Assembly (NCBI GenBank): GCA_014860225.1 | Contig: JACZKE010000063.1 | Location: 22,477 to 86,476, forward strand | Direction: 5' to 3' | Length of the DNA: 64,000 nt | Source: Desulfuromonadales bacterium | GTDB lineage: Bacteria; Desulfobacterota; Desulfuromonadia; Desulfuromonadales; BM103 | Shown here: piece by piece, positions 37,093-58,876 of the stretch | How the letters are laid out: every line of letters begins with the position of its first letter | How positions within the stretch are numbered: the stretch's first letter is position 1 | Position numbers and translations under genes: made by a program | Notes under the pieces: model-generated | Databases searched by the model: none | The model's input: only the letters and a program-made list of their open reading frames with translations | Told to the model about the DNA's origin: nothing

Positions 37093-37286
37093 AAAATTGT
37101 ACTGTCTCCAGGGCTCGCTTGAACGCCGCAAGGTGTAAGATAATCACCTTCTTCCAGAATGTGAACAAACGTCGTGATCGTCCAATATGATTGGTCACTG
37201 AAAATGATAGCGGGCCAACTATTCGTTGTTAGGATGTTTCTACCAATCGCTTAGAGACCGTCGTTCAAAAACTACTGTCGCAAAAA

Positions 37287-37323
37287 GGACCACTTCATCG
37301 GAGGATGAAAATGGTCCTTTTTT
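37287..37323 (+). terminator. terminator hairpin inside a partial R-core/hairpin repeat
   Basis: GGACCA-19 nt-TGGTCC followed by TTTTTT; preceded by CTGTCGCAAAAA, followed by GTGTCTGCAATCCCGG. Confidence 0.55.
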
Positions 37324-37512
37324 GTGTCTGCAATCCCGGTACAGGGACTAATGTGAAAGTGTTCTGGAGTCAGTGATTTCCTGAAACTGGCTTGACAAAA
37401 ACCTTCGCCTCTAAAGATCGAGTACCGCATTCAGCCCACGGTAAACACCTATAAGGGTGGATACCTTGGGGATCGTCGTCAGGGCGTCATCTACATAAAT
37501 AAAACGTTGTTA

Positions 37513-37691
37513 ATCTACCGCAATCGAAGGGCAAGGTCAAAGAGGAGAGATGTGCATACTATTTATATTCCTACATTGTTCTGTGGTATCAAAATTGACC
37601 GAAATGTAAAATTCCTGCTGCCCCTGATATTTAAGAAAAAAAAGCCCCACAGCCAGGAGGGTGACTGTGGGGCGACGAGTTTTGGTTTTTT
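37513..37691 (+). repeat. CR-X copy 1
   Basis: Starts ATCTACCGCAATCGAAGGGCAAGGTCAAAGAG, ends CTGCTGCCCCTGATATTTAAGAAA plus hairpin GCCCCACAG../..CTGTGGGGC and a T-tract; aligns end-to-end with 50837-51006. Confidence 0.75.
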
Positions 37692-37770
37692 TCTAGGAGG
37701 TAAAAGAGAAGAACTTATGTTCTGTGGTTAATATCTTACCTATATTGTCAGGTATGTCAACAAAGAAAAT

Positions 37771-37883
37771 GAAAAAATAAAAGGCCACTCGGAATTGATC
37801 CTGGTGGCCATCGTTTTGTCGTCATAAATTGCTCTATCAATAACACGCCTGTTTTCGTCTCGGCAGTGGTGACAAATAAGAAA
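37771..37883 (+). repeat. CR-1 copy A
   Basis: A-rich core, hairpin GGCCACTCGGAA/TCCTGGTGGCC, TCGTTTTGTCGTCATAAATTGCTCTATCAATAACACGCCTGTTTTCGTCTCGGCAGTGGTGACAAATAAGAAA. Confidence 0.85.
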
Positions 37884-38255
37884 GGCCCTTCCATTTCTGT
37901 GGGGTCGTTATTATCACTTACTGTGATGTGTCAAAAAAACTTCCTGCGATATCACTACCCTCGGATGGTCCCCTCGCCTGACAATTTACGCGTGACCACA
38001 ACGCAGTATAACGGGGCTGAAAAGTTTCTCGCACGCATCCTGTGCGAAAAAAATATTATAAAACAGGGGGATAAGAAACAGGCACGCAGCTTGCTGTAGG
38101 TTCTCTGTGTGATATGTTTAAAATCGATTTGTTACCTTAATCGAAGCATCCGGGCACAAGGGCCTGCCAACAGCGGTGCACTGCATGCCATTGACAATCG
38201 CCCAACACCGATGACTGAAAAAACAATGACTATGAAGACTGAAAGGAGAATGACT

Positions 38256-39464
38256 ATGGTAACGGCCCTCTTGAGAATATCGCATATCGTGTTGCTTGGC
38301 CTGTTATTGGGGTTCTTTTTGTCGGCCTGCGGCGGAGGCGGCAGCTCCAGCTCCGGCGACGGCCAGGGGACCCTGTCAACCTCATTGACCGACGCTTCGA
38401 CGGATGAGTACCAGGCGGTCTATGTCACGGTCGCGCGCGTCGACGTTCACCTTGGTGGCGACGAGGACGAAGACGGCTCCTGGCAGACGGTCGCCGAACC
38501 CAACCAGACCTACAATCTGCTGGAGTTGGTCAACGGGGTCCGCGCAGAGCTCGGCCAGGCATCCCTGGCTGCGGGGCATTACACCCAGTTGCGCCTGATC
38601 ATCGGAGCGACCCCGGATGCAGGGCTGAACCTATTCAGTCAGGCCCACCCCTTTGCCAACTACGTCATCGATCTGGATGATAACGAGAGCCATGAACTGA
38701 AAGTGCCCAGCGGCTCCCAGACCGGCCTGAAAGTTGTCAACGGCTTCGACGTCAATGAGAACCAGACCACCGAACTGATCCTGGATTTTGATGCCATGCG
38801 TTCCGTGGTCAAGGCCGGCGCCAGCGGTCAGTACCTGCTCAAGCCGACGGTCAAGGTCCTTGAGACGGACGTCAATGCCATCGTTTCCGGAACCGTGACG
38901 AATACGCCGCCGGTCACTGACCCGCCAACGGACCCGGCTCCCCTAGCCGGGGCCTTCGTCACGGCCCAGACGGTTGACCCCGCCGCCGTCGACGCCAGGG
39001 ACCAGGTGGTCATCGAGGCCGGAACCCTGGCGGACGAAAACGGTGAATACACCCTGTTCCTGGCACCGGGCGACTACAACCTGGCGGCCGCGCAGGCTGG
39101 CTTCCTGCCGGGCTGCGCAGAGGTGATCCTGGCCGCGGACGACCTGGCCACGGTTGATTTCAGCCTGATCGCCGACTCTGCACTTCCGGGTGCAGTCGCC
39201 GGCACTGTTACGCTTACCGGTGCTCCGGTCGACCAGTATGCAACCCTTGATTTCCGTCAGGAAATGACCTGCGAAAATGCCCTGGCAGCAACCATGGTGA
39301 CGGTGAAATCGGTCAACGTCGTGGCTGGCGCATATTCCGTTGATCTCCCCCCGGGTGACTACCAGGTTGTCGTCTCGTCCTTCGGAATGACCACCCAGAC
39401 AGCAGATGTTACTGTCGTCACCGGGATCGTGACAGAGAATGTTGACTTTGACCTGATTCCTTAA
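38256..39464 (+). CDS. DUF4382-like lipoprotein with C-terminal carboxypeptidase-regulatory-like repeats
   Basis: Start at ATG 38256 after AGGAG; lipobox LSAC; ..[29 protein letters not shown].. DUF4382-type N-domain. Confidence 0.6.
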
Positions 39465-39508
39465 CCCTGGACGTTTTTGCCCACCACTCAGGGCAAGACC
39501 CTGTCGCA

Positions 39509-39545
39509 AAGGCCCGCCGTCGTCATGACCGCGGGCCTTTGCTTT
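39509..39545 (+). terminator. intrinsic terminator
   Basis: AAGGCCCGC-13 nt-GCGGGCCTT followed by TGCTTT. Confidence 0.55.
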
Positions 39546-39655: not shown

Positions 39656-39724
39656 TCTCAAAAACCATCTCGCATTGACGAGCAAATCAAATCAGGCCTG
39701 ACATCTTTGATCCATCCTATCAGT

Positions 39725-39793
39725 CCTGCAATATAAGAAAACCCTCGATCCAAAGATTGAGGGTTTTCGCGTTTTATATATGGTGCAAAATGA
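39725..39793 (+). repeat. CR-2 copy
   Basis: CCTGCAATATAAGAAAA + hairpin CCCTCGATC-CAAA-GATTGAGGG + TTTTCGCGTTTTATATATGGTGCAAAATGAG. Confidence 0.8.
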
Positions 39794-39801
39794 GAACAGC
39801 C

Positions 39802-40173
39802 TTACCATGTCTGAGTAGCAGAATCTATTGTGACGGCCAAGGTAGCACGCAGCCAACTAAATTTTGACTTCAACAAATCAAAGTCAGGACCTTCAGTTAT
39901 AAAAGCCGCTGTCCCTTTGATCAGGAAACCTGCACCTGGGCCATGTAAACCAGTCACTTTGCTACTACCTAATGTAATCAAAACATTATTGTTATAGGCG
40001 ATATTTGCTTCAGTTTGATGCATATATCCAGCGGGAATCAATAACCGACCATCTCCTGACACCCTAATGTAGCTGTTCCAAGTGTTGACCATGTGCGGCC
40101 CCTCTTTACCCACGGTCGCTATGGCAACAACGCCATCTTTTTTCATAATTTCTGCCAGCTTTTCTGGGAACAT
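39802..40173 (-). CDS. pyridoxamine 5'-phosphate oxidase-family (FMN-binding split-barrel) protein
   Basis: MFPEKLAEIMKKDGVVAIATVGKEGPHMVNTWNSY.. resembles PNPOx-like proteins; start at second ATG with GGAG SD. Confidence 0.55.
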   Translation of the reverse strand: MFPEKLAEIMKKDGVVAIATVGKEGPHMVNTWNSYIRVSGDGRLLIPAGYMHQTEANIAYNNNVLITLGSSKVTGLHGPGAGFLIKGTAAFITEGPDFDLLKSKFSWLRATLAVTIDSATQTW

Positions 40174-40258
40174 ATTTATCTCCATGTTTGTTTTTTTTCA
40201 TAAACTATCTACCATTCAAATACTGACAACATCGTCTAATTGAGCAGAATATAAAATA

Positions 40259-40384
40259 CCTCGCAATATACAAAATAGCCACCCGTTTCCAGGCGGCCAT
40301 CATTTTGTGGATTAAAGCCTCTTTTAAATATCTCTATCAATAACACGCCTGTTTTCGTCTCGGCAGTGGTGCATTTCAGTAAAA
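40259..40384 (+). repeat. CR-1 copy B
   Basis: CCTCGCAATATACAAAATA + diverged hairpin + ..ATCTCTATCAATAACACGCCTGTTTTCGTCTCGGCAGTGGTGCATTTCAGTAAAA; the 46-nt stretch CTCTATCAATAACACGCCTGTTTTCGTCTCGGCAGTGGTG is identical to copy A. Confidence 0.85.
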
Positions 40385-40446
40385 TCTCACCAAGAGGCCT
40401 GATCGGGGTTCCGTATTAAAGGAGTAATGGAATCAGGAATTATGAA

Positions 40447-41340
40447 TTAGTCCCTCTGGGATTGTAAACCCGGGGTTCGCACTTTCTGCACAGATTCATA
40501 AGTAGAAACGGAGAGTATAATTGTGCCACCGATCCAGACCGACACCCCAGGGATCTCGCCGACCACGTACCATGCCAGCACGGTGGCAATCCAAGGTTGC
40601 AGACATTGAATCAGCGCTACCGACTTGGCAGGTAATTGTTTCAGACTGAACGCCAGGAGGGTGTGGGCCGCTGCGGTACTGAGAATCCCAAGTAAAACTA
40701 TATTGACCCATGAAGCTGTTTCTAATGCCTGAACTCGGGGGAAATCAACAAACGGAGCCAGCATCAAGCAAATGGCAACAACCTGATGAAAGATGAGACT
40801 ATCACTTGTTTCCCCGTCGAATCGATATTTTTGCAATAGATTCCGCAAGGCGAATAGCAGCGCAGAAATCATCCCAAAGATTACTCCCAGAGTGATCGGT
40901 TTATGCAAGTCAGTCACATCAACGCCAACCATGATCGCTAATCCGGCCAGAACAAGCAACCCGGCGAGAACATCTCCGGTTTTAATCTTCGTTTGGGTGA
41001 AGAGAGGTTCGAGAAGAATGGTAATGACCGGGAAGGTGAACAAAGAGAGCATCCCGACTGCTACAGATGAGACTTGCATAGCATGAAAAAAGGTTATCCA
41101 GTGCAGGCCTAACAGCAGACCCAAGACATATACGCCGACGTAAGTTCGACTTCCTCCATTGAGCTTTAAACTTCGCCTCTGAAGGGCCGTGAAACAGGCA
41201 ATCCCTGCTGTTGCCACTACCGACCGTAATTGAATGATTGACATCGCGTCGAGGGGAATAATTTTCGCGAACAGCCCGGTAAGGGCCAAAAGAAAGATCG
41301 CCAAATATAGGCCTGGCAAGCCTAAACGGGGACATGACAT
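40447..41340 (-). CDS. DMT-superfamily (EamA) transporter
   Basis: 297 aa, about 10 TM, two EamA-like halves. Confidence 0.8.
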   Translation of the reverse strand: MSCPRLGLPGLYLAIFLLALTGLFAKIIPLDAMSIIQLRSVVATAGIACFTALQRRSLKLNGGSRTYVGVYVLGLLLGLHWITFFHAMQVSSVAVGMLSLFTFPVITILLEPLFTQTKIKTGDVLAGLLVLAGLAIMVGVDVTDLHKPITLGVIFGMISALLFALRNLLQKYRFDGETSDSLIFHQVVAICLMLAPFVDFPRVQALETASWVNIVLLGILSTAAAHTLLAFSLKQLPAKSVALIQCLQPWIATVLAWYVVGEIPGVSVWIGGTIILSVSTYESVQKVRTPGLQSQRD

Positions 41341-41370: not shown

Positions 41371-41443
41371 AGCATTACGAGAAAGCCCTCCTGGATCGCC
41401 AAGCGGGCTTTTGGTGTTCTATAGGTTGTGGATTATAGAAAAA
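41371..41443 (+). repeat. CR-2 copy (diverged)
   Basis: ATTACGAGAAA + GCCC..GGGC hairpin + TTTTGGTGTTCTATAGGTTGTGGATTATAGAAAAAC. Confidence 0.55.
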
Positions 41444-41527
41444 CCTGGAGCCGGCTGACCTGCCCCACCTTAAGAGTCCATCTCAAAATTTAGTTTAGCG
41501 CAATGCTTCCTGGCTCCCCAGTCGTTA

Positions 41528-42418
41528 TTATGACCTCTTTACCACCAAGTAAACACCAATAACTGTCATGATGATCGCTGTGATCGCGACTAGACTCAAT
41601 GATTCACCAAACAATAGCCAGGCTTCGATACTCGCGATGGGTGGCACGAGATAAAAATAACTTGCCACCTTAGCCGTCTCACCCTCTCGGATCATATACA
41701 TGAGCAAAAGAATAGCCGAGACTGATAATCCAAATACCAGCCATCCAAGGGCCAGTACCAAGCGAATATCCCACACCACTTCCTGGGCTTCAAATACCCA
41801 GGTCAAAATCGACATCAACATCGCAACACTGACATACTGCCAGATTGATCCGGACAGCAAATTCGTCCTTGAGCCAAAGCGCTTTTGATACAAGGTCCCG
41901 ACAGATATTCCTAACAAAGCTGCTATGGCAGCGAGTACTGAAGGCCAGTTCAGAACGATATCTTGATTCTGACTGGTGCTTAACAACACAGTTACCACCC
42001 CTCCGAGACCTAATCCAAGACCCAGCCACTGTCTAGGACGCAACCGCTCACCTAAAAAAAGCCATCCCAAACAAGCAGTGAGAACTGGCTGCGCTCCAAC
42101 AACTATCGCTGTAATCCCCGCAGGCATGCCCCACTTGATCGCGGCAAAAACACCTCCGAGGTAAGTACCATGCACCAAAAAACCAGTGACCATTTGTTGC
42201 CCAGCCTGCCTAGTTGATAACCGCTCAGCCCGGAACAATAAGCACAAAAGCATAAATACGGCGACGGTTAGAGTCATACGTATGAACAGTAAATAAAAAG
42301 GCTCGATAAAGGGTAAGGCATACTTGGCAGCAATAAAGCCGGTACTCCATAAGAAAACAAATAAAAATGGAATAAGGTTGATCAAAACCCGGCGTTTATC
42401 AGTCATCACAATTCCCAT
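41528..42418 (-). CDS. DMT-superfamily (EamA) transporter
   Basis: 296 aa, about 10 TM, two EamA-like halves. Confidence 0.8.
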   Translation of the reverse strand: MGIVMTDKRRVLINLIPFLFVFLWSTGFIAAKYALPFIEPFYLLFIRMTLTVAVFMLLCLLFRAERLSTRQAGQQMVTGFLVHGTYLGGVFAAIKWGMPAGITAIVVGAQPVLTACLGWLFLGERLRPRQWLGLGLGLGGVVTVLLSTSQNQDIVLNWPSVLAAIAALLGISVGTLYQKRFGSRTNLLSGSIWQYVSVAMLMSILTWVFEAQEVVWDIRLVLALGWLVFGLSVSAILLLMYMIREGETAKVASYFYLVPPIASIEAWLLFGESLSLVAITAIIMTVIGVYLVVKRS

Positions 42419-42630
42419 AGTCCACAGCCCATTATTCCGGCACAGTTCTTGTCTTCATTCAAGAGGAACGATAGCAGGTATATGGGGGTAGACGATTAAT
42501 TTTGATTGGCTTTGGTGAGTGTCAATGACGCTTCCATGCTGAACTTGTACATGGTTCATAAACGGTCGAAATCTTATCTCATTCAAAATAACAGGGCAAT
42601 GAAAACCAAATGATCAGCATTTCCATTTAT

Positions 42631-42691
42631 CCCGCAATCCAAGAATCTGCTCCCACCTTTAATCACTCCTGGCAGTCGTGACTTATAGGAG
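42631..42691 (+). repeat. R-core cluster (2 cores)
   Basis: CCCGCAATCCAAGAATC-11 nt-TTTAATCACTCCTGGCAGTCGTGACTTATAGGAG. Confidence 0.65.
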
Positions 42692-42995
42692 ATCGCTTCG
42701 TTAGGGTCATAGCTTCACCCCAAAATGGTTCAGAATGACTAGCAGCAGCAAATAACAAAAGACTGTCAGCACAACGGAAAGGCCAAGGCTAAGGCTAAGG
42801 TAGAAGTTGAGCCCTTGTACATAATTTTTCTTTTCAAAACTGAACTTTGGCAAGGTCAGCTAGAAATGTAAATTTTCAACATTTAAAGGTCTAATTGCCA
42901 GTGGTTTCTCCTCCTACGTTATTGTTGAAAAATTCTCATATTTGACTTATTATTTCACCTTTTTGCGGGCGAATCATTATTGGAGAGATATCATC

Positions 42996-44045
42996 ATGAA
43001 CGTTGTCAGATTGAACCTGATTGGTTTTTTATGTCTATTTTTCATGCTCATTGTGCCCCAGGCCTTTGCCGAGACTGGTGACGACCCTTTGACAAACTGG
43101 CAGCCCAAATTCGATCCCGGCAAAGCAGAATATAAGTATTTACTTTCATGTGTTGGTCATCCGGCAATAGAAGGGGTTGGGGTTGGGTTTCGCATACGCG
43201 ACAAGGTTTGGGAGAAAAGCGACGGGCGCCTTTTCGTAGATTTCCGGCCTCTGTCTCTTCTTGGAGGAGAGAAGGATGTCATCAACAAACTGAAAATGGG
43301 CGCAATACAAGGAATGATGAGTTCTTCTGTCGCTGCGGCAAATGTTGCTGAAACCCTCGGTATAGTCAATATCCCTTACGTTATTGATACCTTTGAGAAG
43401 CTGGATCGCTTTCGCACTACACCAGAACTCTGGCAACCTTTTCATGAAGCTGCCTTAGGTAGTAATATTGTCGTTGCAGACATTACGGGCTATGGTTCGT
43501 ACGGATGGGCGACAAAAAAGCCAGTCAAGACCTTTAAAGATGCTAAATCCGTTAATTTCCGTATAGCCGAAGCACCTGTTAACATAGATTTCTACAAAGC
43601 ATGGGGACTCAAATTTACGGTCATGCCATGGCCGGATGTTCCACAAGCTCTCCAGACGGGAGTCATAACAGGGCTTGATCACACTCCCATCGTTTGCAAC
43701 ATTAGCGGGAAATTCAATGTTGCAAAATACTACACCCAACTCAATTATGCACAAGGGTTGTATATTCACCTGATAAACACCCGTTGGCTTAACAAACTAC
43801 CGAGGGATCTGCGTAAAATTCTTCTGGATACGATCGAGGAAGAAAGTGCTGCGGCAAGGGCTTTGACTCGCGAACAGCAGAGGGACCAAATTCAGGCAGC
43901 GAAGGAATCCGGGATAACCTTCTATCAGCTTCCGGAAAAAGAAAAAGCTGAACTTATCGAAAAAGCAAAACCCATGTATGACAAGTGGGGTGGTAAAATT
44001 GGCGCAGATTATTTCCAAACGGTAAGGGCCTCGCTAGCCCAATAA
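42996..44045 (+). CDS. TRAP transporter substrate-binding protein (DctP family)
   Basis: Start at MNVVRLNLIGFL.. (signal peptide, GGAGAG SD); DctP-like fold pattern; no DctQM genes adjacent. Confidence 0.75.
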   Translation: MNVVRLNLIGFLCLFFMLIVPQAFAETGDDPLTNWQPKFDPGKAEYKYLLSCVGHPAIEGVGVGFRIRDKVWEKSDGRLFVDFRPLSLLGGEKDVINKLKMGAIQGMMSSSVAAANVAETLGIVNIPYVIDTFEKLDRFRTTPELWQPFHEAALGSNIVVADITGYGSYGWATKKPVKTFKDAKSVNFRIAEAPVNIDFYKAWGLKFTVMPWPDVPQALQTGVITGLDHTPIVCNISGKFNVAKYYTQLNYAQGLYIHLINTRWLNKLPRDLRKILLDTIEEESAAARALTREQQRDQIQAAKESGITFYQLPEKEKAELIEKAKPMYDKWGGKIGADYFQTVRASLAQ

Positions 44046-44078: not shown

Positions 44079-44237
44079 GCCCCAGCCATCGCCGGTTGGG
44101 GCTTTTTCATTTCCGAAATTTTGCCTTCCCCTCCCCACCCCCAAATTTCCCCTCAGTACCGGATCTGGATCGGACTTTTCGACTGACATTTAACAAACCT
44201 ATGAGTTTCCAATAAATGCTACTGCATTGTTCTTCGG
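44079..44237 (+). repeat. CR-3 copy 1 (terminator hairpin + about 135-nt conserved tail)
   Basis: GCCCCAGCCATCGCCGGTTGGGGCTTTTTCATTTCC...CCCCTCCCCACCCCCAAATTT...ATAAATGCTACTGCATTGTT; matches the reverse complement of 61447-61587. Confidence 0.75.
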
Positions 44238-44273
44238 TGCTCAGGTTGAATGTAGTGCGAAATTCTTACTGAT

Positions 44274-44394
44274 CCTGACTCATAAGAAAATGGCCACCCT
44301 GAATCGTTCAAGGAGGCCATCATTTTGACACCTTAAATTGCTCTATCAATAACACACCAGTTTTCGTCTCGGCAGTCGTGACATTTAAGAAAAA
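44274..44394 (+). repeat. CR-1 copy C
   Basis: CCTGACTCATAAGAAAA + hairpin TGGCCACCCTGAA/TTCAAGGAGGCCA + TCATTTTGACACCTTAAATTGCTCTATCAATAACACACCAGTTTTCGTCTCGGCAGTCGTGACATTTAAGAAAAA. Confidence 0.85.
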
Positions 44395-44426
44395 CCACCT
44401 GCTTTCAATTGGCCATTTTTTGTGTA

Positions 44427-45680
44427 TTAAAGCTTATTCAAGCAGGCACTGGAAGGTTCGACCCATGCAGCGCGGTCGCGTCCTTCAGCTTTGGCCTTAT
44501 AGAGGCCCTCGTCAGCCCGTTGCAGCACGATGTCGAGGTTTTCCTCGCCTGAAAGAGACGTTGCAATTCCGAGACTGACCGTCACTGGTAGAGGTGTGTC
44601 ATTATACATGAATGGCCGGGTGCGAACAGCCTGGCGTACCCTCTCAGCAGCCACTACCGCACTCTCAAATGATTCATCTGGGAGGACAAGCAGAAACTCT
44701 TCTCCGCCATAGCGGCCTAACTGATCGTAATCACGCACTGTCTCTTGAATCCTCAGGGCCATGTCACGTAACACTTGGTCGCCGGCGAGATGGCCGTAAG
44801 TATCGTTGACTTTTTTGAAATGGTCTATATCGAGCATGATAAAACTCAATGAATAATCATTTTGTTGCTGACGGCGTCGATCAATCCGCGAGATTTCCTT
44901 GCGGGCCCGGTCGACGATTGCACCGCGGTTGTAAACGCCGGTCAGGGCGTCAATGGTAGCAAGAACGTGCAACTTATCCTGTGCTTCTCGCACGTGGGTG
45001 GAGGCGTTTTTTACGAAGAAGAAAGAGACTCCGAAGACTCCCACCAGGATGATGCCAAGAATAAAAACTGAATTAATAACTGTCGTGACTATCTCTTTGC
45101 GGTAACGAGTGACATCTGCGTAAATCTCAAAGGCGCCGACGACGGCATTGCCAATGCGAATCGGGATGTAACTTTCAACCACGTCGACATCCAGCATCTC
45201 CTCGTTTGCAAGATCGCGAAAGGCCTCCTTGTTTTCGTGGTGAGAATCGGGACTCCCCTGTAAGGCACGCTCCAGCCTGAGGTTCCCGGTATCTGTATCT
45301 CCGATGAGCGCGGCTTCCGAACTGAAAATGATCATCTTGTCGGCGTTGTATATTTTGATTTTGACTATTTCGAAGGCCTTGAGAAAACGCCGGAATCGAC
45401 GATCGAGAGTGTCCAAAGACATCGGATAAACGAAGAGTACAGGCTGTCCATCTGTCCCATCTGTGAAGAGCAGGTCTTCCTGTTCGACAAGCAGAACAGC
45501 GGCGATATGTGCCGCATCCTCCTCGGCGCTGCGCAGTACCTGGTCTGAGTAGACCCGGTAAATGCCATAGCCAGTTCCTGCAATAATGATAATTATTGAA
45601 AAGCAGGCCACCGCGACCAGTTTTTTCAGCAACAGTTGTACGTTGCCTTTCGGTGGGTTGGTATCAGCTTCAACTGACAT
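44427..45680 (-). CDS. diguanylate cyclase (GGDEF) with N-terminal membrane-anchored sensor domain
   Basis: 417 aa; GGEEF active site, RxxD-type region, two TM segments flanking a periplasmic domain. Confidence 0.85.
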   Translation of the reverse strand: MSVEADTNPPKGNVQLLLKKLVAVACFSIIIIIAGTGYGIYRVYSDQVLRSAEEDAAHIAAVLLVEQEDLLFTDGTDGQPVLFVYPMSLDTLDRRFRRFLKAFEIVKIKIYNADKMIIFSSEAALIGDTDTGNLRLERALQGSPDSHHENKEAFRDLANEEMLDVDVVESYIPIRIGNAVVGAFEIYADVTRYRKEIVTTVINSVFILGIILVGVFGVSFFFVKNASTHVREAQDKLHVLATIDALTGVYNRGAIVDRARKEISRIDRRRQQQNDYSLSFIMLDIDHFKKVNDTYGHLAGDQVLRDMALRIQETVRDYDQLGRYGGEEFLLVLPDESFESAVVAAERVRQAVRTRPFMYNDTPLPVTVSLGIATSLSGEENLDIVLQRADEGLYKAKAEGRDRAAWVEPSSACLNKL

Positions 45681-50836: not shown

Positions 50837-51006
50837 ATCTACAGCAATCGAAGTGCAAGGTCAAAGAGATGTGTTTCTTATTTATGCTATTGCATTGTAT
50901 GGAGGGTGTGAATATACCTGGGACAATATTTCTTGCTGCCCCTGCAATGTAAGAAAGCCCCCGATCCGAAGATTGAGGGCTCGTTTTATAATTGGTGATT
51001 TATAAG
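50837..51006 (+). repeat. CR-X copy 2 (3' part is a CR-2 unit)
   Basis: ATCTACAGCAATCGAAGTGCAAGGTCAAAGAG...CTGCTGCCCCTGCAATGTAAGAAA + GCCCCCGATCCGAAGATTGAGGGC + TCGTTTTATAATTGGTGATTTATAAG. Confidence 0.75.
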
Positions 51007-51097
51007 ACACTTAACGTCAAAGTGAAATACCGCTAACCAGGGGACGCGGTACCGATTCAAGGCAGGCTATCGAGTCAGAGGAGTTGCCTCGACTGGC

Positions 51098-52429
51098 CTA
51101 TTCGGTACTATAGTGAGGATCTTCCTCATCGTATTCGTGTAACTTCAGGAACCACTTCTCCGCTACAAAAACAAGGCCTAGTCCGATCAGGGAAATCCAA
51201 GCCACGAAGATGTCGGATTGAGCCTTTACCCACAAAAATGCGCTAAGGACCACAACATCGAGAAAAATCGCAGTGATCAGCACCCAAATCTTTGCCCCTA
51301 CCTCCTCGCGCAAGTGCTTGAAGACGCCCCAGTGGATGCAAATGTCCATAACGATATAAAAAACCGCCCCAATTGAAGCGATACGGCTGAGGTCGAAAAA
51401 GATCGTAAGCAACATCGCGATGAAGACAGTGTAAATGAGCGTGTGCCGCTGCAAATTGCCGGGAAGGTTAAAATGCCTGTGAGGTACAAGCTGCATGGAT
51501 GTGAGCATCGCCAACATGCGGGAAACTGCAAAAACGCTTGCAATGGCGCCTGAGACTGTCGCAATGATCGCAAAGCCAACCGTAAACCATGCCCCGTATT
51601 GGCCAAAAGCCGGGCGCGAAGCCTCGGCCAGCGAATAGTCCTTTGCTGTTACAATTTCCTCAATCGATAAATTCGCTCCCACGGCAAGGGCGACAAAGAC
51701 ATATAACAGGGCGCAAATAAAAATGGAGAGGATAATGGCTCGGCCGACGTTCTTTTTCGCGTCCTTCAACTCGCCACCACTGTTAGTTATCGTTGTAAAG
51801 CCTTTATATCCCAAGATTCCCAAAGCCACCGCGCCGAGGAAATCCGCTGCGCCAGTTTTTACTGGCTCGACCGAAACACTCTCGAATGACCAACCGGTCA
51901 CCCAAAGACCACCAATAGCCAAAACAGCCAGACCTGCGATCTTGACGAAAGCCATCACGAATGAAAATGTTTGAATGAATTGGTTGCTTAAAATGTTGAT
52001 TACCAAAGCGAACAACAGCAGGCCGACACCGAGCGCCGGTATTAGCCAATCAGACTCTCCCGCATCAAAAGCCTGGAGGAAATAGGTCCCGAAGGTTCGG
52101 GCAACAAGGCTCTCATTGATCACCATCGAAAAATACATCAGCAGGGCACAGGCCCCCGTCATAAGACCGCGCCCGTAGGCTTTCTTGAGGAACATGGCAA
52201 TCCCCCCTGCAGAGGGGTATTTCTGTGCCATCTTGACGTAACTGTATGCACTGAAACTCGCGATGGCCGCAGCGAAAAGAAAGGCCAGAGGAAACAACGT
52301 TCCGGCGAGTTCAGCTATTTGTCCAGTTAGGGCAAATATACCAGCGCCGATCATGACGCCGGTACCCATCGAAACCGCTCCCCAAAGGCTCAACGAATCT
52401 TTGTTCTTTGAATGTTCGCTTTTCTCCAC
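51098..52429 (-). CDS. APC-superfamily amino acid/polyamine permease
   Basis: 443 aa, about 12 TM; N-terminal ..SLWGAVSMGTGVMIGAGIFALTG.. APC signature. Confidence 0.85.
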   Translation of the reverse strand: MEKSEHSKNKDSLSLWGAVSMGTGVMIGAGIFALTGQIAELAGTLFPLAFLFAAAIASFSAYSYVKMAQKYPSAGGIAMFLKKAYGRGLMTGACALLMYFSMVINESLVARTFGTYFLQAFDAGESDWLIPALGVGLLLFALVINILSNQFIQTFSFVMAFVKIAGLAVLAIGGLWVTGWSFESVSVEPVKTGAADFLGAVALGILGYKGFTTITNSGGELKDAKKNVGRAIILSIFICALLYVFVALAVGANLSIEEIVTAKDYSLAEASRPAFGQYGAWFTVGFAIIATVSGAIASVFAVSRMLAMLTSMQLVPHRHFNLPGNLQRHTLIYTVFIAMLLTIFFDLSRIASIGAVFYIVMDICIHWGVFKHLREEVGAKIWVLITAIFLDVVVLSAFLWVKAQSDIFVAWISLIGLGLVFVAEKWFLKLHEYDEEDPHYSTE

Positions 52430-52820
52430 TTCTGACCCCTCTCACTATTTTTTTCAGGGCGAGTTGCAGTGACCAAAACTGCTCAAACTTTCCGCTAATA
52501 AAATGAGTTGCCCCGTATCTTGCTGCAGGGCAGCAAAAACAATTTGACACTCACAACGATAACAGTTAGAGGGGAAATTGCGAATAACCCCCCATCCAAA
52601 AATCAGAAAGGGAAGGCGCTGGTCGAGAAGTAAAGACTGGACGAAAAGCCGTTGGAGGGTTGATCATGAGACAATTCCTTGGGTTGCCAGGGAGACAAAA
52701 TCCGCCTTTCACTGAGGCAGCCTGAATTATTTTCACATTCAGGTCTCAAAGGAATGTGTCTCAAAAGTTATGTCGGTAAATTGATTAGATAAACATTTAA
52801 TGGACAGGGTAATCTTAAAA

Positions 52821-52932
52821 TCCTGCAATCCAGGAAACAGACGGATGCCTTTATTCCGTCCTCGCAGTGGTGCAATGCAGGAATCGAGCAATCGGCTTTA
52901 ATCCGTCCTATCAGCCGTGATCTTTAATAATT
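52821..52932 (+). repeat. tandem R-core mini-array (3 cores separated by 12-nt spacers)
   Basis: TCCTGCAATCCAGGAAA | CAGACGGATGCC | TTTATTCCGTCCTCGCAGTGGTGCAATGCAGGAAT | CGAGCAATCGGC | TTTAATCCGTCCTATCAGCCGTGATCTTTAATAAT. Confidence 0.7.
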
Positions 52933-52955: not shown

Positions 52956-53695
52956 TCAAACTCCAAATACTTTGAGAAACAAATCTGTCACACCTTCTAA
53001 CCCCCGCTTGGGGAAACCACTCTTCTTTCCCGAGTATGGCATTTCTTGGTATATGTAAAAGCGTTTTTCTCCAGAGAAATTATCGTTCAACAATTCACGC
53101 TTGCCGAGTAAGTAGGCAAGGAAAGTTTCACTACGTCGTGCGGAGTAAGCAAGGTTCGTACTGAAGCCTATAGTAGCTGCTTGGTTAATGGATCGCCCGC
53201 TATCTGCTTGTTCAATCTTAATCCCATGGCAACCCTGAACAATCAGTTGTGCCGGTCCGTGGAACGCAAGGTAACGCAATTGCAGGGTTAGCCATGCATG
53301 CAGGCTGTTCAGTTGCCAGTGGGACGTTATGTGGATAGGTGAGGCTTTGTGTTGAACAATGTTAACAAGATTGTGTGGTTGCATCACAAGCGCAACCCCC
53401 TGAGGGATGGACAAGATTCCGATCTCACTGAGAGACTCTTTGGTTGCAGAGATGACGGACATTTGGGGCAGTCAATGTCATTCTGCCGGAATCGTCTTAT
53501 GAGAGAGCTTTTCCTAAACAGCCGATGCAGGCTAAGCAGGCTGTGGTTGATTGGCGTGACGACACTGGCCGGCTTTGGTCCGTCCCGGTCGCTCTGCCGA
53601 AGGAAAACGGCATTGCAAATACCGGACAGCCCTTGAGTCTGGTATATAAAATCCTGCCGGCGGGTCAAGTAACTGTTAGACTGCAACCGTCTCAA
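52956..53695 (-). pseudogene. unknown gene, apparently split by a frameshift near 53384-53462
   Basis: 168-aa ORF (52956-53462) and 103-aa ORF (53384-53695) on the same strand overlap by 79 nt in different frames; family not recognised. Confidence 0.3.
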
Positions 53696-53762
53696 TAATC
53701 ACCACTTATAACGCACGAAAGCCCTCATCTACGGATCGGGGGCTTTTCTTACATTGCAGGAT
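53687..53762 (-). repeat. CR-2 copy (reverse orientation)
   Basis: Reverse complement: TCCTGCAATGTAAGAAAAGCCCCCGATCCGTAGATGAGGGCTTTCGTGCGTTATAAGTGGTGATTATTGAGACGG. Confidence 0.8.
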
Positions 53763-54187
53763 CAACAAAACTTTCGCATTTCGGCCAATTGGAACAACTC
53801 GAAGCTCTGCGAGAGGATAAATAGTAAATTGGATGACTGGATTCGAGCCAGCGATTCCCTGCTCCCGAAGCAGAAGTGATCCGCTCGAATGAGCACTCTT
53901 TCCTCAGTGCGCTCATTTACCAGATGGGACGTATCCCAAAGGCGTTCACGTTTGACGTCAACGAACCACTTCCTCAGGTGTAGTAATCGGCACTTGGTCA
54001 GATAGTGTCTGGTTATCAGGGACTAGAAGCCGGCCTTGAATCAATTCCCCATTATATTTAACTACAGAATGCCTTCGATATACGGCATTTGTTGACATAT
54101 TGATAAATCGGAGCTTACTGTAAATGCCAAAATTAATTGCGAATTTTAATTGGCGAGTCAAAACCTACAAATTAGGCCATCTTTTCT

Positions 54188-56368
54188 ATGCGCGGGGCGG
54201 CAGTCATGGATAACCCAGAAACTACAACAATAGAGAGCAAGGAACTGCTTAAAAAGGCTACTGCTGCTGCTGAAGCGTTACTTAGAAAAGCCGCTGACGC
54301 TTCGGAAACGTTGCTTAATAAAGCTACTGAGACCTCTGAAGCTTTACGATGTGCCGCTGCTGAGACTGAGGAAGGGGTACATACCAACTCGATAGAGGCT
54401 GCTGATATGCTTCTCCTAGCTGCATCTAGGGCTTCAAAGGCTTTATATGCTGATTCGGCTGAGGCCGCTCAGCTCTTACTCTGTACAGCTGCAGAGGTTG
54501 CGGATACTGCTGAAGCTGATGAAAATAATAAGGCGTCGATCGCTGAAGCTGTTGAGAGTGCTAGAGAGTTACTCTATACAGCTGCTGATAATGCTAAAAC
54601 CTTGATCGCTGAAGCTGTTAAGACGGCTGTCAAATTACTTGGTGATACAGCCGTGGAAACTGAGCGGCTACGTCGCAACGCCGTTAATTGTTATTTGGTG
54701 GAATTGCGCAACAAGGCAGAAGCGGCACTGATTGAGATCACCTCTGAAGCAGAGAGCGCAATGATGGCGATGGGTTCAAAAAGCTTAGTGCATGAGTTAC
54801 GGGTTCAAAAGTTAGAACTGGAGATGCAAAACCAGGAATTGCAGGATTCGTCCGCGGAGGTGGAAAAGTTACAGGAATATTTCGCCGATTTTTATGATTT
54901 TTCCCCGACAGGGTTTGTTAGCATTGACCTGAATGGCGCAATTAACCATACCAATATCACTTGTGCAAAACTTCTGGGCAGAGAGCGTTCCCAGTTGATA
55001 GGAGCCATCTTTGCTTCTTTTGTGACCATGGTTGACCGGCCCGTTTTCAACAACTTTCTACAGCAACTCTTTGAGGGCGGAACTAGGCAAACCTGCATAT
55101 TGTCATTGTATGACAGAGAGCAGACTCGTATATTTGTGCAGATGGTGGGAACACTTTCTCCTGACAAACAATCATGTCGAGCAGTGCTGATAGACCTCAC
55201 CGAGCAACGGCAAAGGGAAGAACAACTCCGCCAATCACAGAAAATGGAGGCGATAGGGCAGCTCGCTGGTGGCGTCGCCCATGATTTTAACAACATCCTC
55301 TCGGTTATCATAGGGTATGCCAGCTTGATGCAGATGGATAAACAGCTTGATGACCCCCAGCAAGAAAGGGTCAAGGCGATTGCATCCTCCGCCGAGAAGG
55401 CAGCTCAGCTGACCAAGGGGTTGCTGGCTTTCAGCCGCAAACAGGCCATGGTTCTCAGAAACTCCAACCTTAACGATATTGTACTGCACGTGGAGAATTT
55501 TCTTGCCAGGATTATCGGTGATGACATCAACCTCACCTCAATTCGCCATGCGCAACAATTGCCGGTCAATGTTGACTCTGGGCAGATCGAACAGGTTTTG
55601 ATCAACCTGGCCACGAATGCCCGTGATGCCATGCAAAATTGCGGGTCGCTGACCATAGAAGCAGGGATGCAGGAGATTGGTGCATCATTTGTTGGAAAGC
55701 ATGGGTATGGCGAACCTGGCCGCTACGCCCATTTAAAGGTATCCGATACAGGCAGCGGGATGGATAAGGATACCTGCAACAAGATATTCGATCCATTCTT
55801 TACTACCAAGGAGGTTGGCAAGGGCACCGGTCTTGGCTTGGCCATAGCTTACGGAATTGTAAAGCAGCACAACGGCTTTATCGAAGTATACAGTGAACTG
55901 GGTCAAGGCACGACTTTCAGGATTTATCTGCCTCTTATTGAATTAGAACAGCCCGTACGAGAAGTGAATGTAGCACTGCAGCCACCACAAGGAGGTACCG
56001 AGACTATCCTTGTTGCAGAAGATAATGCAGACGTGCGCAAACTCGTGGTAACCGTCCTGACAAAATTCGGATACGACGTAATCCAAGCCATTGATGGACA
56101 AGAAGCTGTCGATATGTTTGCTGCACATCGTGATCGGATACGCTTGATCCTAATGGACATGATTATGCCGAGAAAGAACGGGAGGGATGCTTATGAAGAG
56201 ATCATCCGAACCCACTCGGTAGGCGTAAAGGTATTGTACTTGTCAGGATACACAGCTGACTTTATCCAAAACCGCGGGATATCTGAAGAAGGGATTGAAC
56301 TATTGATGAAGCCGGTACAACCGTTGGAATTGTTACGTAAGATTAGGGAGATGCTGGACTCAAAGTAA
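54188..56368 (+). CDS. hybrid sensor histidine kinase/response regulator (Ala-rich helical N-region, PAS, HisKA, HATPase_c, REC)
   Basis: 726 aa; H-box ..[11 protein letters not shown].., N/G boxes ..[10 protein letters not shown].., ..DTGSGMD.., ..GKGTGLGLA..; C-terminal receiver ..[16 protein letters not shown].. Confidence 0.85.
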
Positions 56369-56510
56369 ATTTTCTTATTTATCACGATTGGCAGGACGAA
56401 AAAGTGCGTATTGTTGATAGAGATATATAGAAATATCGTGAAAGCACAAATTTATGGCCACCTGGATTGAACCTAGGTGGCCATTACGACGTTGACGTAA
56501 TTTTACTTAT
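56369..56510 (-). repeat. CR-1 copy H (reverse orientation)
   Basis: Reverse complement: ..CAGAATAAGTAAAAT..TGGCCACCTAGGTTCAATCCAGGTGGCCATAAATTTGTGC..ATATCTCTATCAACAATACGCACTTTTTCGTCCTGCCAATCGTGATAAATAAGAAAA. Confidence 0.8.
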
Positions 56511-56830
56511 TCTGATGTTTCGATCAAATGAGTGCTAGGGTCTCTGAGCTGCTTTTGGCTTCTTAATTGATTTTGGTTGCCTTGCATCTGTTGATATTCC
56601 GACCGACTTGTAGTAATCCCATTACCCTGACGATACTGGTATTGGTTTTGTTGTTTGTATTGGTACTGATGCGTATTCCCTGCTTGCGACATTCCTGAGC
56701 CAAGGCCACTACCGTTACAGAAACCTCCTCCTTTGCCTCCACCGCCCCTTGCTAATGCAAGTTCTGCCCCTGTGACAGTCATCAAGAATGTTGCGATAAT
56801 TCCAATGGTGATAATTTTTAGGGTCCTCAT
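56507..56830 (-). CDS. small secreted Gly/Gln/Tyr-rich low-complexity protein
   Basis: 107 aa; signal peptide MRTLKIITIGIIATFLMTVTGAELALA; GGGGKGGG then QYQYKQQNQYQYRQ repeats; strong AAGGAGG SD. Confidence 0.5.
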   Translation of the reverse strand: MRTLKIITIGIIATFLMTVTGAELALARGGGGKGGGFCNGSGLGSGMSQAGNTHQYQYKQQNQYQYRQGNGITTSRSEYQQMQGNQNQLRSQKQLRDPSTHLIETSE

Positions 56831-56904: not shown

Positions 56905-57022
56905 GGTTTACATTTTTCTTACCGACTGAAATTCTGCCGCGTTACTAAATTTCACGACTGCCAGGACGGATTAATTGCGGGATCAAATTCTTAGATTGCA
57001 GGATTTGTAGGAAAAACTGAAT
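56905..57022 (-). repeat. R-core cluster (about 4 cores, reverse orientation)
   Basis: Reverse complement: CCTGCAATCTAAGAAT-11 nt-ATTAATCCGTCCTGGCAGTCGTGAAATTTAGTAAC...CAGTCGGTAAGAAAAATG. Confidence 0.65.
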
Positions 57023-57097
57023 AATTGCAGTAAAACAGCGGGAAAACATATGGAATAACAAAGAAGACTGTTTTGCGCTCCCTTTTTCGCCTAAGAT

Positions 57098-57769
57098 TTA
57101 TCGCCCACCACCAGGAGGACGCGGCATTGTGCCCGTTACGCCGGCCGTCAAGGTAAAGCGCATGGCCTCCTCCATGCTCATATCCAGGGGGCGGACCGCA
57201 CTGCGTGGCATCAGGACCGCATAACCCCCAATCATATAACTCAGGGGTAGATAAACCAGGATGCTATCTTTTTCTCGAAAATCTTCAGGCATGTGTTCCG
57301 AAATTGCCTGAGTGACAAATCCGATCACTTGCATGCCGGTATCCCCGATAGAGACGGCCACCACCTGCTTGAATTCTTTTTTTCGCGTCGGTGAGAAATA
57401 GTCAAAAAAATCGCGTATTGCTCGATACACGGATTTAATCACGGGTGTGTGGTAAAAGAGTTGCTCCCCTTTGGCAAACAACCGTTGCACCACGTAGGCT
57501 TGCATCAACAGCCCCACCACGAACACCACGACCAAACCGGTGATCAATCCCATACCGGGCCAGTACAGGTGTTCGGGAAGCATCAATCGAATCACGTTGC
57601 CCAATACGGACTCTGCCGACACCGCCAGCCAGTAGATGAGGTACAGTGTTAGCAATACCGGCAGGATAGTAACCAACCCAGTAAGAATGTTTCGGCTTAT
57701 AAATCTCACTATCTGGACGTCCTTCGTTTGAGGGGTTATTGAACGCTGCTTGCTTTCCCTGTTCAGCAA
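57098..57769 (-). CDS. DUF502 domain membrane protein
   Basis: 223 aa (TTG start, uncertain); ..ILTGLVTILPVLLTLYLIYWL.. DUF502 N-terminal signature. Confidence 0.65.
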   Translation of the reverse strand: MLNRESKQRSITPQTKDVQIVRFISRNILTGLVTILPVLLTLYLIYWLAVSAESVLGNVIRLMLPEHLYWPGMGLITGLVVVFVVGLLMQAYVVQRLFAKGEQLFYHTPVIKSVYRAIRDFFDYFSPTRKKEFKQVVAVSIGDTGMQVIGFVTQAISEHMPEDFREKDSILVYLPLSYMIGGYAVLMPRSAVRPLDMSMEEAMRFTLTAGVTGTMPRPPGGGR

Positions 57770-57831
57770 GAGAAATGACGAACACTCATCGTAAATAATT
57801 ATAGGTGTCTTTTTCTACCCATCAATCAGAC

Positions 57832-57983
57832 ACTCAAAACCTTCGGTCAGAAGATCGGGGGGTTTTCTAATTTATCACTACTGATGAGACGAAAACGGGC
57901 ATGTTATTGATAGAGACATTTAAGACGACAAAATGATGGCCACCTGGATCAAATCTGAGTGTCCACTTTCTTATGAGTCAGTA
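57832..57983 (-). repeat. CR-1 copy I (reverse orientation) with 3' CCCCCCGATC-type element
   Basis: Reverse complement: CTGACTCATAAGAAAGTGGACACTCAGATTTGATCCAGGTGGCCATCATTTTGTCGTCTTAAATGTCTCTATCAATAACATGCCCGTTTTCGTCTCATCAGTAGTGATAAATTAGAAAACCCCCCGATC.. Confidence 0.85.
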
Positions 57984-58045
57984 CATTAAGGACTTGGGTG
58001 ATAAAGACGACATGTGTCACCCATTTTTGCCTAGCTCCTGAGAGA

Positions 58046-58687
58046 TCACAAGAGGGCCTTAAGCTCACGATTGAAAATTAAGATGAATTTAGCAATTGTT
58101 TCAACAGATGTTAATTTTTCTTTTGAGTCATCGGTTAACCAGGTAACGAAGTCTTCGTTGATAGATGTGACGATCTTCTCGGTATCAAAGTCCGTGAGGT
58201 GATCGAGTACATACTTGGCAGTGGTGTTGATGCCCAGGGATAGCCGAGTTTTCAAGAAGGTTCTGAAAATTAATCGCCCTATCGGGGTGCGGTAGTATGT
58301 GGCGAGAGGGTCTGTGACCGTCCCACAGTTGCGGCAAACAATATCGAAGTATTGTTCGATCTGAGCATGATCGATCGAATCTTTGCTGTCATTTTCCGTT
58401 GTGCTTGTAGGCAGAAATGCTGCAGGGATCGGCAGTCCATGTTCTTTTAGCAGTTTAACAACAGCTTCGGGGTAAATAAATGTCCCTGTGAGGAACGGCT
58501 CTGATTCGCCACGATGGTCCATAATATGAACCACCAATACGTGAAACATTTGCTCGATGTTGTCGTTTCGTTCGATGGATGGTAAGTCGAATTTACGCAA
58601 CGCGACAGATATGTTTTTCGGAATGCCGTAATATTTATCATGTTGAAACACTGTCAAAAGGTCTGACGCAAAAAAGAGATCTTTCAT
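58046..58687 (-). CDS. hypothetical protein
   Basis: 213-aa ORF, no family recognised; one CxxC (CRNCG). Confidence 0.45.
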   Translation of the reverse strand: MKDLFFASDLLTVFQHDKYYGIPKNISVALRKFDLPSIERNDNIEQMFHVLVVHIMDHRGESEPFLTGTFIYPEAVVKLLKEHGLPIPAAFLPTSTTENDSKDSIDHAQIEQYFDIVCRNCGTVTDPLATYYRTPIGRLIFRTFLKTRLSLGINTTAKYVLDHLTDFDTEKIVTSINEDFVTWLTDDSKEKLTSVETIAKFILIFNRELKALL

Positions 58688-58797
58688 TCCGGGCCCCAGA
58701 AAAAGAGGAAAAGCAACTGTATCACCTTGTTGATGTCTTTAATAGAAAAGGACTCCAACAAATTGGCCAGAGAGGGAGAGTTCCCTGAAAGCCCCTA

Positions 58798-58876
58798 ACC
58801 TATCTCATTTTGCACCATCTATAAAAACACGAAAACCCTCGGTTCACGGATCGAGGGCTTTTCTTACATTGCATGG
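58798..58876 (-). repeat. CR-2 copy (reverse orientation)
   Basis: Reverse complement: CCATGCAATGTAAGAAAAGCCCTCGATCCGTGAACCGAGGGTTTTCGTGTTTTTATAGATGGTGCAAAATGAGATAGG. Confidence 0.8.

Follow-up and report, generated by a model that had tools for sequence, protein, structure and literature searches.

This report concerns a stretch of 64,000 nucleotides (nt) from a Desulfuromonadales bacterium (contig JACZKE010000063.1), referred to below as the window, and within it an array of about 24 kilobases (kb), from ~37.3 to ~61.6 kb, in which units of one or two genes are strung together between members of a single family of intergenic repeats. The repeat family is real, non-random and lineage-wide in a Desulfuromonadales clade, and the best reading of the region is a cassette-type plasticity array whose repeats would serve both as terminator/promoter boundaries and as recombination junctions. 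Direct reading and profile searches found at least one family member in each of the 18 intergenic gaps between the bestrophin gene, which ends at 37092, and the ferredoxin gene, which starts at 59011, so that the statement of the initial annotation that nearly every gap holds a repeat is borne out. In a comparison of the window with itself, every repeat match fell within 37,493-61,587 and none within 1-37 kb; the ~40 kb of the window outside the array are free of family members except for one solitary X-box. The same X-box (28622-28637) is the only element in the ~14 gaps of at least 100 nt counted in 1-37 kb from the table of open reading frames (ORFs), which agrees with the local enrichment proposed earlier. 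The region is also richer in AT, as had been claimed, the G+C content changing from ~0.50-0.58 in 1-40 kb to 0.42-0.48 in 40-60 kb. Of the limits given at first, 37275-58876, the run of repeats stands and the right limit does not, since the family extends to ~61.6 kb. Parts of the region were recovered in independent Logan assemblies of the same sample (L001 and L089; L-numbers are labels of related loci, either metagenome-assembled genome (MAG) stretches from GTDB or metagenome contigs, that were compared with the window), and the array is therefore not an assembly artefact.

The repeats are modular. A D module of ~80 nt lies ahead of an X core, ..CCC/GTG|AC..ATAAGAAA, i.e. (C/G)TG|AC..ATAAGAAA; directly after X stands a G+C-rich hairpin followed by a T run, then, in the longer units, a ~65-nt A body that ends in a second X, while a sigma-70-type promoter may point outward from the element. 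The hairpin is of three kinds, namely H1 (GGCCACCyGGAATTGATCCrGGTGGCC), B-type (CCCTCGATC..GATTGAGGG) and unit-specific, and the B and C types of repeat are shorter variants on the same plan. A units and D modules were located by profile searches, and the B/C-type relatives in the remaining gaps by reading and self-comparison.

The array begins with a composite element (37493-37680, +), whose D module (37563-37638) ends in the X core and is followed by a hairpin (37644-37673); its outward promoter (37540-37512, -) reads TTGACC-N17-TAGATT. An A unit (37770-37890, +), consisting of H1 (37783-37809), T run, A body and X2 (GGTGACAAATAAGAAA), precedes the gene for a DUF4382/CarboxypepD_reg lipoprotein (38109-39464, +; this and the following gene assignments are from Pfam). 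The next gap holds a B unit (39714-39795, +) composed of X1, the B-type hairpin, a short A and X2, which is terminator-like when read from the neighbouring PNPOx-like gene (39802-40185, -). An A unit (40254-40386, +) stands before the first of two EamA/DMT transporter genes (40447-41340, -), and a short B-like unit (approximately 41385-41444, +) before the second (EamA2, 41528-42418, -); homology with L057 has its left junction at the X2 of this unit, GTGGATTATAGAAAAA (41428-41444). Then follow a C-type unit (42607-42690, +; ..TTTAATC..CCTGGCAGTCGTGACTTATAGG), the gene for an orphan DctP solute-binding protein (42942-44045, +), and a full composite of the order D-X1-H1-A-X2 (44216-44398, +), which starts with its D module and has its A unit from 44264. 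The GGDEF gene (44427-45680, -) has a promoter-like site (45778-45750, -; TTGACC-N17-TACATT) adjoining the D module of another D-X1-H1-A-X2 composite (45795-45964, +; A unit from 45844). After the cupin gene (46073-46546, -) comes a D-X1-H1-A composite (46742-46902, +; A unit from 46791) that ends abruptly after ..ATCTATCAATAA. Between the CMD-family gene (46993-47328, +) and the gene for a PLP-dependent decarboxylase (47508-48971, -) lies an A unit (47336-47478, +) that has diverged and carries an X2 (47435-47450) and a B-type hairpin, this X2 being the left junction of the PLP-decarboxylase unit. The gap at 49115-49400 (+) is occupied by an A unit (49115-49249), a hairpin (49242-49272) and the diverged remnant of a second A (49340-49400).

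Beyond a 103-aa ORF with no Pfam family (49475-49786, -), a D module and a B unit (49960-50084, +; B part 50006-50084) are followed by the PsiE gene (50125-50565, -). The element at 50741-51021 (+) combines a conserved leader, an outward promoter (50864-50836, -; TTGACC-N17-TAGATT), a D module (50882-50956) and a B unit (50930-51021). Next to it are the gene for an APC amino-acid permease (51098-52429, -), two tandem C-type units (52815-52930, +) and a 168-aa ORF with no Pfam family (52956-53462, -). A B unit (53676-53790) plus D module (53820-53745), together spanning 53676-53826 (-), form the first element in reverse orientation, and a degenerate tRNA-like relic (53836-53897, -), extending from the D arm to the T arm and scoring 13.3 bits, below threshold, is joined to the left end of this D module. 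The gene for a hybrid kinase with PAS, HisKA, HATPase and receiver domains (54188-56368, +), whose N-terminal region contains a 33-nt (11-codon) tandem repeat present three times (54514-54639, +), has its stop codon abutting the X2 of an A unit (56367-56502, -). The remaining features are a Gly/Gln-rich 107-aa ORF (56507-56830, -), a C-type unit (56945-57027, -), the DUF502 gene (57098-57769, -), an A unit with X1 (57858-57987, -), a 213-aa ORF with no Pfam family (58046-58687, -), and a B unit (58803-58903) with a partial D module (58907-58860), together spanning 58803-58907 (-). An outlying D module (61467-61403), together with a hairpin related to that at 44079-44113 (61403-61587, -), is likely the right end of the array. 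The Pfam assignments confirm the earlier list of genes between the repeats.

The solitary X-box (CGTGATAAATAAGAAA; 28622-28637, +) is located 570 nt after tRNA-Arg(CCG) (27974-28050) and 9 kb before the array, and may be either an old array edge or a chance occurrence. A conserved leader starting TCTTATTTGTGTG comes after the outward promoters at both 37.5 and 50.8 kb (37324-37512, -, and 50741-50836, -). At the 37.5-kb promoter no ORF occurs ahead of a terminator-like hairpin (37283-37323), and a small RNA or peptide may be its product.

The D module has inverted ends of 10 nt, TCTTATTTAT and ATAAATAAGA; its first bases are TCTTATTTAT and its last ones A(C/T)AAATAAGA, a motif that is also found at other module borders. 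When D copies were lined up on the CTG of the core as anchor, the preceding C was identical in all 79 anchored copies, and the consensus of the adjoining X was AAATTCTTACTGACCC-TG-ACAAATAAGAAA. The initial annotation had denied dif-like arms to the repeats, a point made doubtful by X next to D, where TTCTTA and TAAGAA face each other as the arms of an imperfect 26-bp palindrome with CC|TG at its centre; both arms are present in 47 of 77 copies. H1 with its flanking A and T tracts constitutes a palindromic unit of ~60 nt. The A body comprises the 65 nt after H1 (TTTTGTCGTCTTAAATGTCTCTATCAATAACACGCCCGTTTTCGTCTC-nnn-AGTSGTGA) and hardly varies among 50 copies drawn from many genomes; it is more conserved than orthologous genes, which points to a function tied to its sequence. 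On its reverse strand, the invariant part is promoter-like, e.g. TTGATA-N16-17-CAAAAT at 44322-44349 (-), with a long variant TTGATA-N18-TTTAAT, and points into H1. No module matched Rfam, either at the gathering score or at E<=5, and RNAalifold gave no consensus pairs in D and three pairs alone in the A-unit alignment; a structured non-coding RNA is ruled out by the Rfam result and by the missing consensus structure in D and the A body. A sigma-54 promoter in D or X was rejected by eye for its wrong spacing. The X-box is likewise not a target-site duplication, since the X1 and X2 that flank an A unit show at least 3 differences over ~12 positions in all copies checked.

A predicted promoter left of D on the opposite strand, TTGAYN-N16-18-TAnnnT, occurs in 23 of 76 D copies and in none of the shuffled controls; 13 of the 23 keep one fixed register, although the spacers between their hexamers are unrelated. 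The hairpin and T run, with the A-rich X ahead, look like a two-way intrinsic terminator, and the strongest terminator-like hairpins of the window coincide with elements. A 68-nt perfect-type palindrome at 20038-20105 between convergent genes (18844-20016, +, and 20118-21386, -) does not belong to this family; it probably works as a two-way terminator. The insulation role suggested earlier is a prediction from sequence, drawn from the terminator-like hairpins and the conserved promoter. Such features could also mean that the repeats are purely regulatory modules of one regulon, i.e. promoter-upstream regions, terminators and a protein-binding A box kept alike by selection, with no role in gene movement. 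The fixed register of the promoter beside D, the terminator-like hairpins and an A body that is near-invariant without RNA structure, as a protein-binding site would be, are consistent with this explanation. It leaves unaccounted for the co-orientation independent of gene strand, the empty tandem units and the homology that ends at module borders between relatives, all described below, and we regard it as improbable.

The A-unit pattern was found in 22 loci of 10 GTDB MAGs and in 65 metagenome contigs; the MAGs are labelled Desulfuromonadales, delta proteobacterium, Geobacteraceae and, in one case, Smithellaceae. The modules are clustered in these relatives as well: many 8-kb loci carry 2-8 of them, L019 repeats the order of gene plus A unit three times in 2.5 kb, L043 has 8 sites in 11.7 kb, and L090 packs 7 modules into 6.5 kb, the next 5 kb being free of them. 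Single genomes hold several arrays or scattered copies. Genes next to the arrays are diverse, with 149-176 Pfam families per batch of ~120 ORFs, and no neighbouring gene family other than signalling domains recurs among the 364 predicted ORFs of 87 loci. In a synteny comparison through bestrophin, the 85% relative has different neighbours. No account of the repeat family was found in Rfam, nor in searches of the Geobacter/Pelobacter and integron-related literature, and the P. carbinolicus supplements of the Geobacter/Pelobacter work on 'multicopy nucleotide sequences' contain none of the A-unit words.

Orientation of the modules is strict. Across 88 sequences, adjacent module pairs are co-oriented in 129 of 132 cases (98%). 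Genes at module loci are antisense to the modules in 244 cases and sense in 122, and in the window the elements lie on the gene strand in the right part and opposite to it in the left part; the ratio of just 2:1 and the shared strand in the right part rule out gene strand as the source of the orientation. Replication is ruled out as well, because in a decomposition of GC skew the coding term was 0.030 and the replication-like term was near zero (-0.007; confidence interval -0.018 to 0.004). Since both causes are excluded, the directionality belongs to the arrays themselves, as it does in integrons.

Co-oriented sites between single unrelated genes, as seen in L019, L013 and the window, raise the possibility of an integron-type array, a cluster of attC sites lacking integron integrases (CALIN), with unusual attC sites and its IntI encoded elsewhere. 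Sites of ~125 nt, mostly single unrelated genes facing mainly one way, and no adjacent integrase would suit such an array. The initial annotation had nevertheless noted that the repeats lack attC R''/R' inverted cores, and folding bears out that attC-type end pairing is missing: single-strand folds of eight units show just the local hairpin (H1 or B-type) with unpaired ends. Five of the eight (including four of six A units) fold no better than shuffles (z -1.5 to +0.2), whereas one A unit and both B units reach z -2.8 to -4.7, in each case owing only to the local hairpin. The ends of the units are direct and not inverted repeats, which together with the folds rules out the attC model. Moreover, no RYYYAAC/GTTRRRY cores were seen by eye at unit ends, many units have their own promoter, and no IntI- or Xer-like ORF was found in the window and 87 loci. 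We therefore consider a CALIN very improbable.

The only polarity switch of the window, which the initial annotation did not mention, lies at 53.0-53.7 kb: all elements are on the plus strand up to 52.9 kb and all on the minus strand from 53.7 kb. GC skew is negative over 36-54 kb and positive on either side, and D copies at 37563 (+) and 53820 (-) are inverted relative to each other; a past inversion of 37.6-53.7 kb, which would account for the switch, is plausible on these grounds. The degenerate tRNA-like relic described above is located beside the switch, and similar 3' fragments abut module ends in L049 (1988-2046, 24.4 bits), L080 (from 8184) and L061. These relics suggest that integrative elements also land in the arrays. 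In its stronger form, this would make the region a pile-up of small integrative elements or their remnants at tRNA-type attachment sites, comparable to tycheposons, with repeats derived from att sites or the flanks of tRNA genes. Such an origin would fit these fragments and a further tRNA-like one in L049, made up of 7040-7075 and 7208-7235, where a D-X-hairpin-X unit is flanked by a ~8-nt duplication (AGTCATCC). It would also fit the tRNA genes that occur close to arrays in L008, L017 and L061 and, in the window, 9 kb ahead of the array. On the other hand, neither the A nor the D module resembles a tRNA or matches Rfam, tRNA fragments are missing from most junctions, searches of ~560 kb detected no tyrosine integrase, and the units measure 0.5-2.5 kb and usually hold one gene. 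A pile-up of this kind is consequently an unlikely explanation of the array. As a separate observation, the ~130-nt D-X-hairpin-X unit inside the tRNA-like fragment of L049 (7030-7240) resembles a miniature integrated element.

A further mobile element is found near the end of the window, where the 3' end of a group II intron (domains V-VI; Rfam RF00029, 47.9 bits) occupies 63756-63827 (-) and continues past the window end. An intron copy 81% identical to it lies in L006 (1405-1605) between oppositely oriented A units, at one of the only three orientation switches observed. Class C introns, which target terminators, may make use of the array hairpins. In the window, the intron fragment sits just 3' of an AhpC/peroxiredoxin gene (~63116-63730, +) with an in-frame TGA (63260-63262) at the expected position of the peroxidatic Cys (..DFTFV-TGA-ATE..) and a perfect hairpin, TTTCAGCAGTTGCTGAAA, ~11 nt downstream of this TGA. 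As judged from these features, the gene probably encodes a selenocysteine peroxiredoxin; the Logan gene caller divided it into two ORFs (L089 92-475 and 560-817).

The comparison of units with those of related strains, proposed in the initial annotation, gave a positive outcome. Single-gene units, including those of the PLP decarboxylase, EamA2 and ~6 more, are 93-99% identical at the nucleotide level between relatives and have other neighbours on both sides, with homology stopping at repeat borders, so the cassette-like architecture recognised earlier is borne out. The PLP-decarboxylase unit (window 47436-49242; unit 47436-49131) occurs in L049 and L059 at 92.8% identity among different neighbours, and the EamA2 unit (window 41428-42664) corresponds to L057 647-1865 at 93.8% in a different context; nothing else in L049, L059 or L057 matches the window beyond the shared unit. 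At the left junction between the window and L049, homology begins at the X-box (window ..GTC|GTGAGTTATAGGAAAAGCACCC), which is preceded by a diverged A unit in the window and by a B-like unit in L049. At the right junction, unit-level identity reaches the X-box before H1; the next H1-A unit is ~78% identical, which is the family level, and there is no match past its X2. L049 and L059 are 99% identical through the H1-A unit to ..GGCAGTCGTG| and unrelated beyond. An all-against-all comparison revealed further blocks of 95-99.7% identity with different flanks on both sides in L028/L080 (99.7%), L011/L079, L041/L076 and L076/L079.

The positions of the breakpoints are informative as well. Of 35 internal breakpoints, nine are no more than 10 nt away from an A or D core, compared with 3.2 +/- 1.7 for random intergenic positions. 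Among recent junctions, judged by eye in blocks mostly at least 95% identical, ~9 of ~13 are at the STG core, with ends ..CTG, ..GTG and ..GGTGA and starts GTGAC.., CTGCAA.. and TGGTGA... The crossovers of L049/L059, L028/L080 and L058/L060 fall in the final few bases of a 99%-identical 130-nt repeat, where the homology on the far side is shortest.

We propose that the region is a cassette array in which units are exchanged at repeat borders and joined site-specifically, a joint claim that we rate at somewhat less than even probability. Site-specific rather than general recombination is suggested because the best-resolved crossovers are fixed 1-2 nt from the centre of the 26-bp palindrome, because the central bases are near-invariant and the co-orientation strict, and because the structure-less A body is extremely conserved. 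More specifically, and only tentatively, the arrays may represent a previously undescribed gene-cassette system, distinct from integrons and site-specific at a directional core, ..STG|AC..ATAAGAAA, within elements of ~125-200 nt. Cassettes, each made of D region, promoter, gene and terminator, would be captured, excised and reshuffled at this core by a recombinase acting in trans, perhaps a small serine recombinase. Along the commoner gene direction, the order in a unit is reverse X-left (CAGGG), reverse D, a promoter if present, leader and gene, hairpin and TTTCTTATTTGT. The promoter, carried by about a third of D copies, would fire away from D into one or two genes, and the G+C-rich hairpin with the T-rich reverse of the X-box would act as terminator, making each unit a self-contained expression module with its own upstream region, promoter and terminator. 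Hairpins and promoters would thereby insulate the units transcriptionally. Gene units, and between them gene-less 'empty' units of H1 and the 65-nt A body, would be chained head to tail at the X core, where conservative site-specific recombination by an enzyme encoded elsewhere would excise and insert them.

Several findings weigh against this proposal. BLAST matches run on through shared repeats as far as these reach, so that breakpoints seem more clustered at X2 than they are, and the core excess falls short of significance when only breakpoints inside repeats are counted. Some junctions map to other sites, such as the border between H1 and the T run or the left end of D, and one falls within a gene; no clean pair of filled and empty sites was present in the sampled loci. 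The left palindrome arm is missing from the A-type X2. Promoter and terminator functions are sequence predictions, and the overall terminator count of 26 is not above that expected from shuffled sequence (20.6 +/- 3.9). As for the enzyme, the initial annotation saw no recombinase or transposase, and Pfam indeed detected none among the array genes or flanks of the window. Searches by phmmer with XerD, gamma-delta resolvase and IS608 TnpA against all six-frame ORFs of ~560 kb, including the window, where they matched nothing, found just a resolvase fragment in L042 and, in L051, an IS200-like pseudogene with its own, unrelated ends. No tyrosine integrase or XerD-like ORF was found in the window or 87 related loci, Phage_integrase is not among the recurrent Pfam families, and no recombinase recurs beside the arrays in the 364 ORFs of those loci.

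The sole enzyme candidate seen is a decaying small serine recombinase, which is only a lead. The start of its gene lies in L042 (1-228, -), 55 nt downstream of D-X, and relatives sit inside the arrays of L090, L095-L100 and L101/L102, each on the strand of an X-box that precedes it by 55-85 nt; the arrangement is found in four lineages (e.g. L090 1125-1466, L095 10001-10366 and L101 10001-10315; proteins P0121-P0137). Members of this resolvase/invertase family are 80-97% identical over many metagenomes, yet the gene is truncated or frameshifted in almost every copy, at points that differ between copies (80-126 aa). That the in-array copies are mostly independently frameshifted, and that family members are also found outside arrays, adds to the evidence against the proposal. 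One such locus, L103 (Geopsychrobacteraceae), has no A/D repeats; its 1-12518 region is rich in toxin-antitoxin pairs (HepT/MNT, ParE/Phd, ParE-like/ParD-like and BrnT/CopG) and also contains PNPOx and CMD genes and two resolvase paralogues, a gene content that is integron-like. An intact resolvase homologue of 189 aa is encoded at L103 4135-4704.

The earlier suggestion of a dedicated capture system is thus not established, as junction mapping favours a fixed core, yet homologous recombination between repeats is also compatible with the data. The alternative named at the same time, a plasticity zone rich in repetitive extragenic palindromic (REP) sequences or miniature inverted-repeat transposable elements (MITEs), stays live. 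According to it, mosaic repeats like MITEs, or like the bacterial interspersed mosaic elements (BIMEs) that contain REP sequences, would occupy a horizontally acquired AT-rich zone, and units would be swapped by homologous or microhomology recombination, for example after DNA uptake, with no dedicated machinery. We regard this as a real possibility, albeit not the favoured one. The mosaic combinations of modules and the truncated copies, the inverted ends of D, the ~60-nt palindromic unit around H1, the junctions inside D, at H1 borders or within a gene, the non-significant core excess and the absence of a recombinase associated with the arrays are all in line with it. Against it, co-orientation of 98% over many genomes is unexpected for alternating REP/BIME elements or for MITEs, no REP-type GTAG was seen by eye beside H1 in the copies read, and no target-site duplication was found. 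Furthermore, the clean recent events cross at the last bases of the 130-nt repeat, where far-side homology is shortest, and the A body is conserved beyond orthologous genes.

To our knowledge, integrons are the only well-understood bacterial system that keeps single-gene cassette libraries at a dedicated locus. If the arrays are a mechanistically different cassette system, such an organisation of accessory genes evolved more than once; they would also offer a new handle on gene flow in metal- and sulfur-cycling bacteria of sediments, and a source of recombination sites and of portable promoter-terminator boundary parts. If the repeats are merely substrates of homologous recombination, they still form a lineage-wide mosaic family, absent from Rfam, that structures plasticity zones.

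Among known systems, sedentary integron arrays and CALINs share with these arrays the mostly single unrelated genes, the co-oriented sites (~60-140 nt) that are similar within a lineage, the content that varies among close relatives and a local integrase that may be missing. The arrays described here differ in lacking the attC fold and the R''/R' inverted cores, their sites ending instead in direct repeats of the A-rich X-box, in the promoter and terminator carried by many units, in the several arrays or scattered copies per genome, and in that no IntI was found. BIMEs of enterobacteria and neisserial NIMEs are likewise intergenic mosaics of a palindromic unit and conserved extra motifs, often 3' of genes, and can act as terminators, mRNA-end structures or protein-binding sites; unlike BIMEs, which alternate and are dispersed, the units here are co-oriented and clustered. 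In contrast to REP sequences and their associated transposases (RAYTs), no GTAG was seen by eye and no RAYT was found in the ~560 kb searched, and the modules mark junctions of shuffled units; in contrast to MITEs, there is no target-site duplication. The pdif modules of Acinetobacter plasmids, which depend on Xer, are also small modules bounded by short sites, found in varied contexts and without an internal recombinase. Their sites are alternating 28-bp XerC/XerD sites, whereas those of the array are co-oriented and lie within 80-200-nt modules in which Xer arms were not recognised, without a formal comparison. Tycheposons and tandem tRNA-linked islands carry cargo between co-oriented repeats with tRNA fragments inside and have many segments without integrase, while here the repeats are not tRNA fragments, the segments hold single genes and no integrase was seen. 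The Tn3 res site differs in its setting, since the arrays have no transposase or transposon ends, contain dozens of sites per region and are accompanied by mostly decayed resolvase copies. The inferred crossover lies 1-2 nt from the dyad centre of the D-X palindrome. Shared with res are a site of ~120-140 nt that, in some arrays, directly precedes the gene for a small serine recombinase, a ~26-bp imperfect palindrome with a near-invariant centre, and the arrangement of the sites, as resolvases act on directly repeated sites and the array sites are directly repeated as well.

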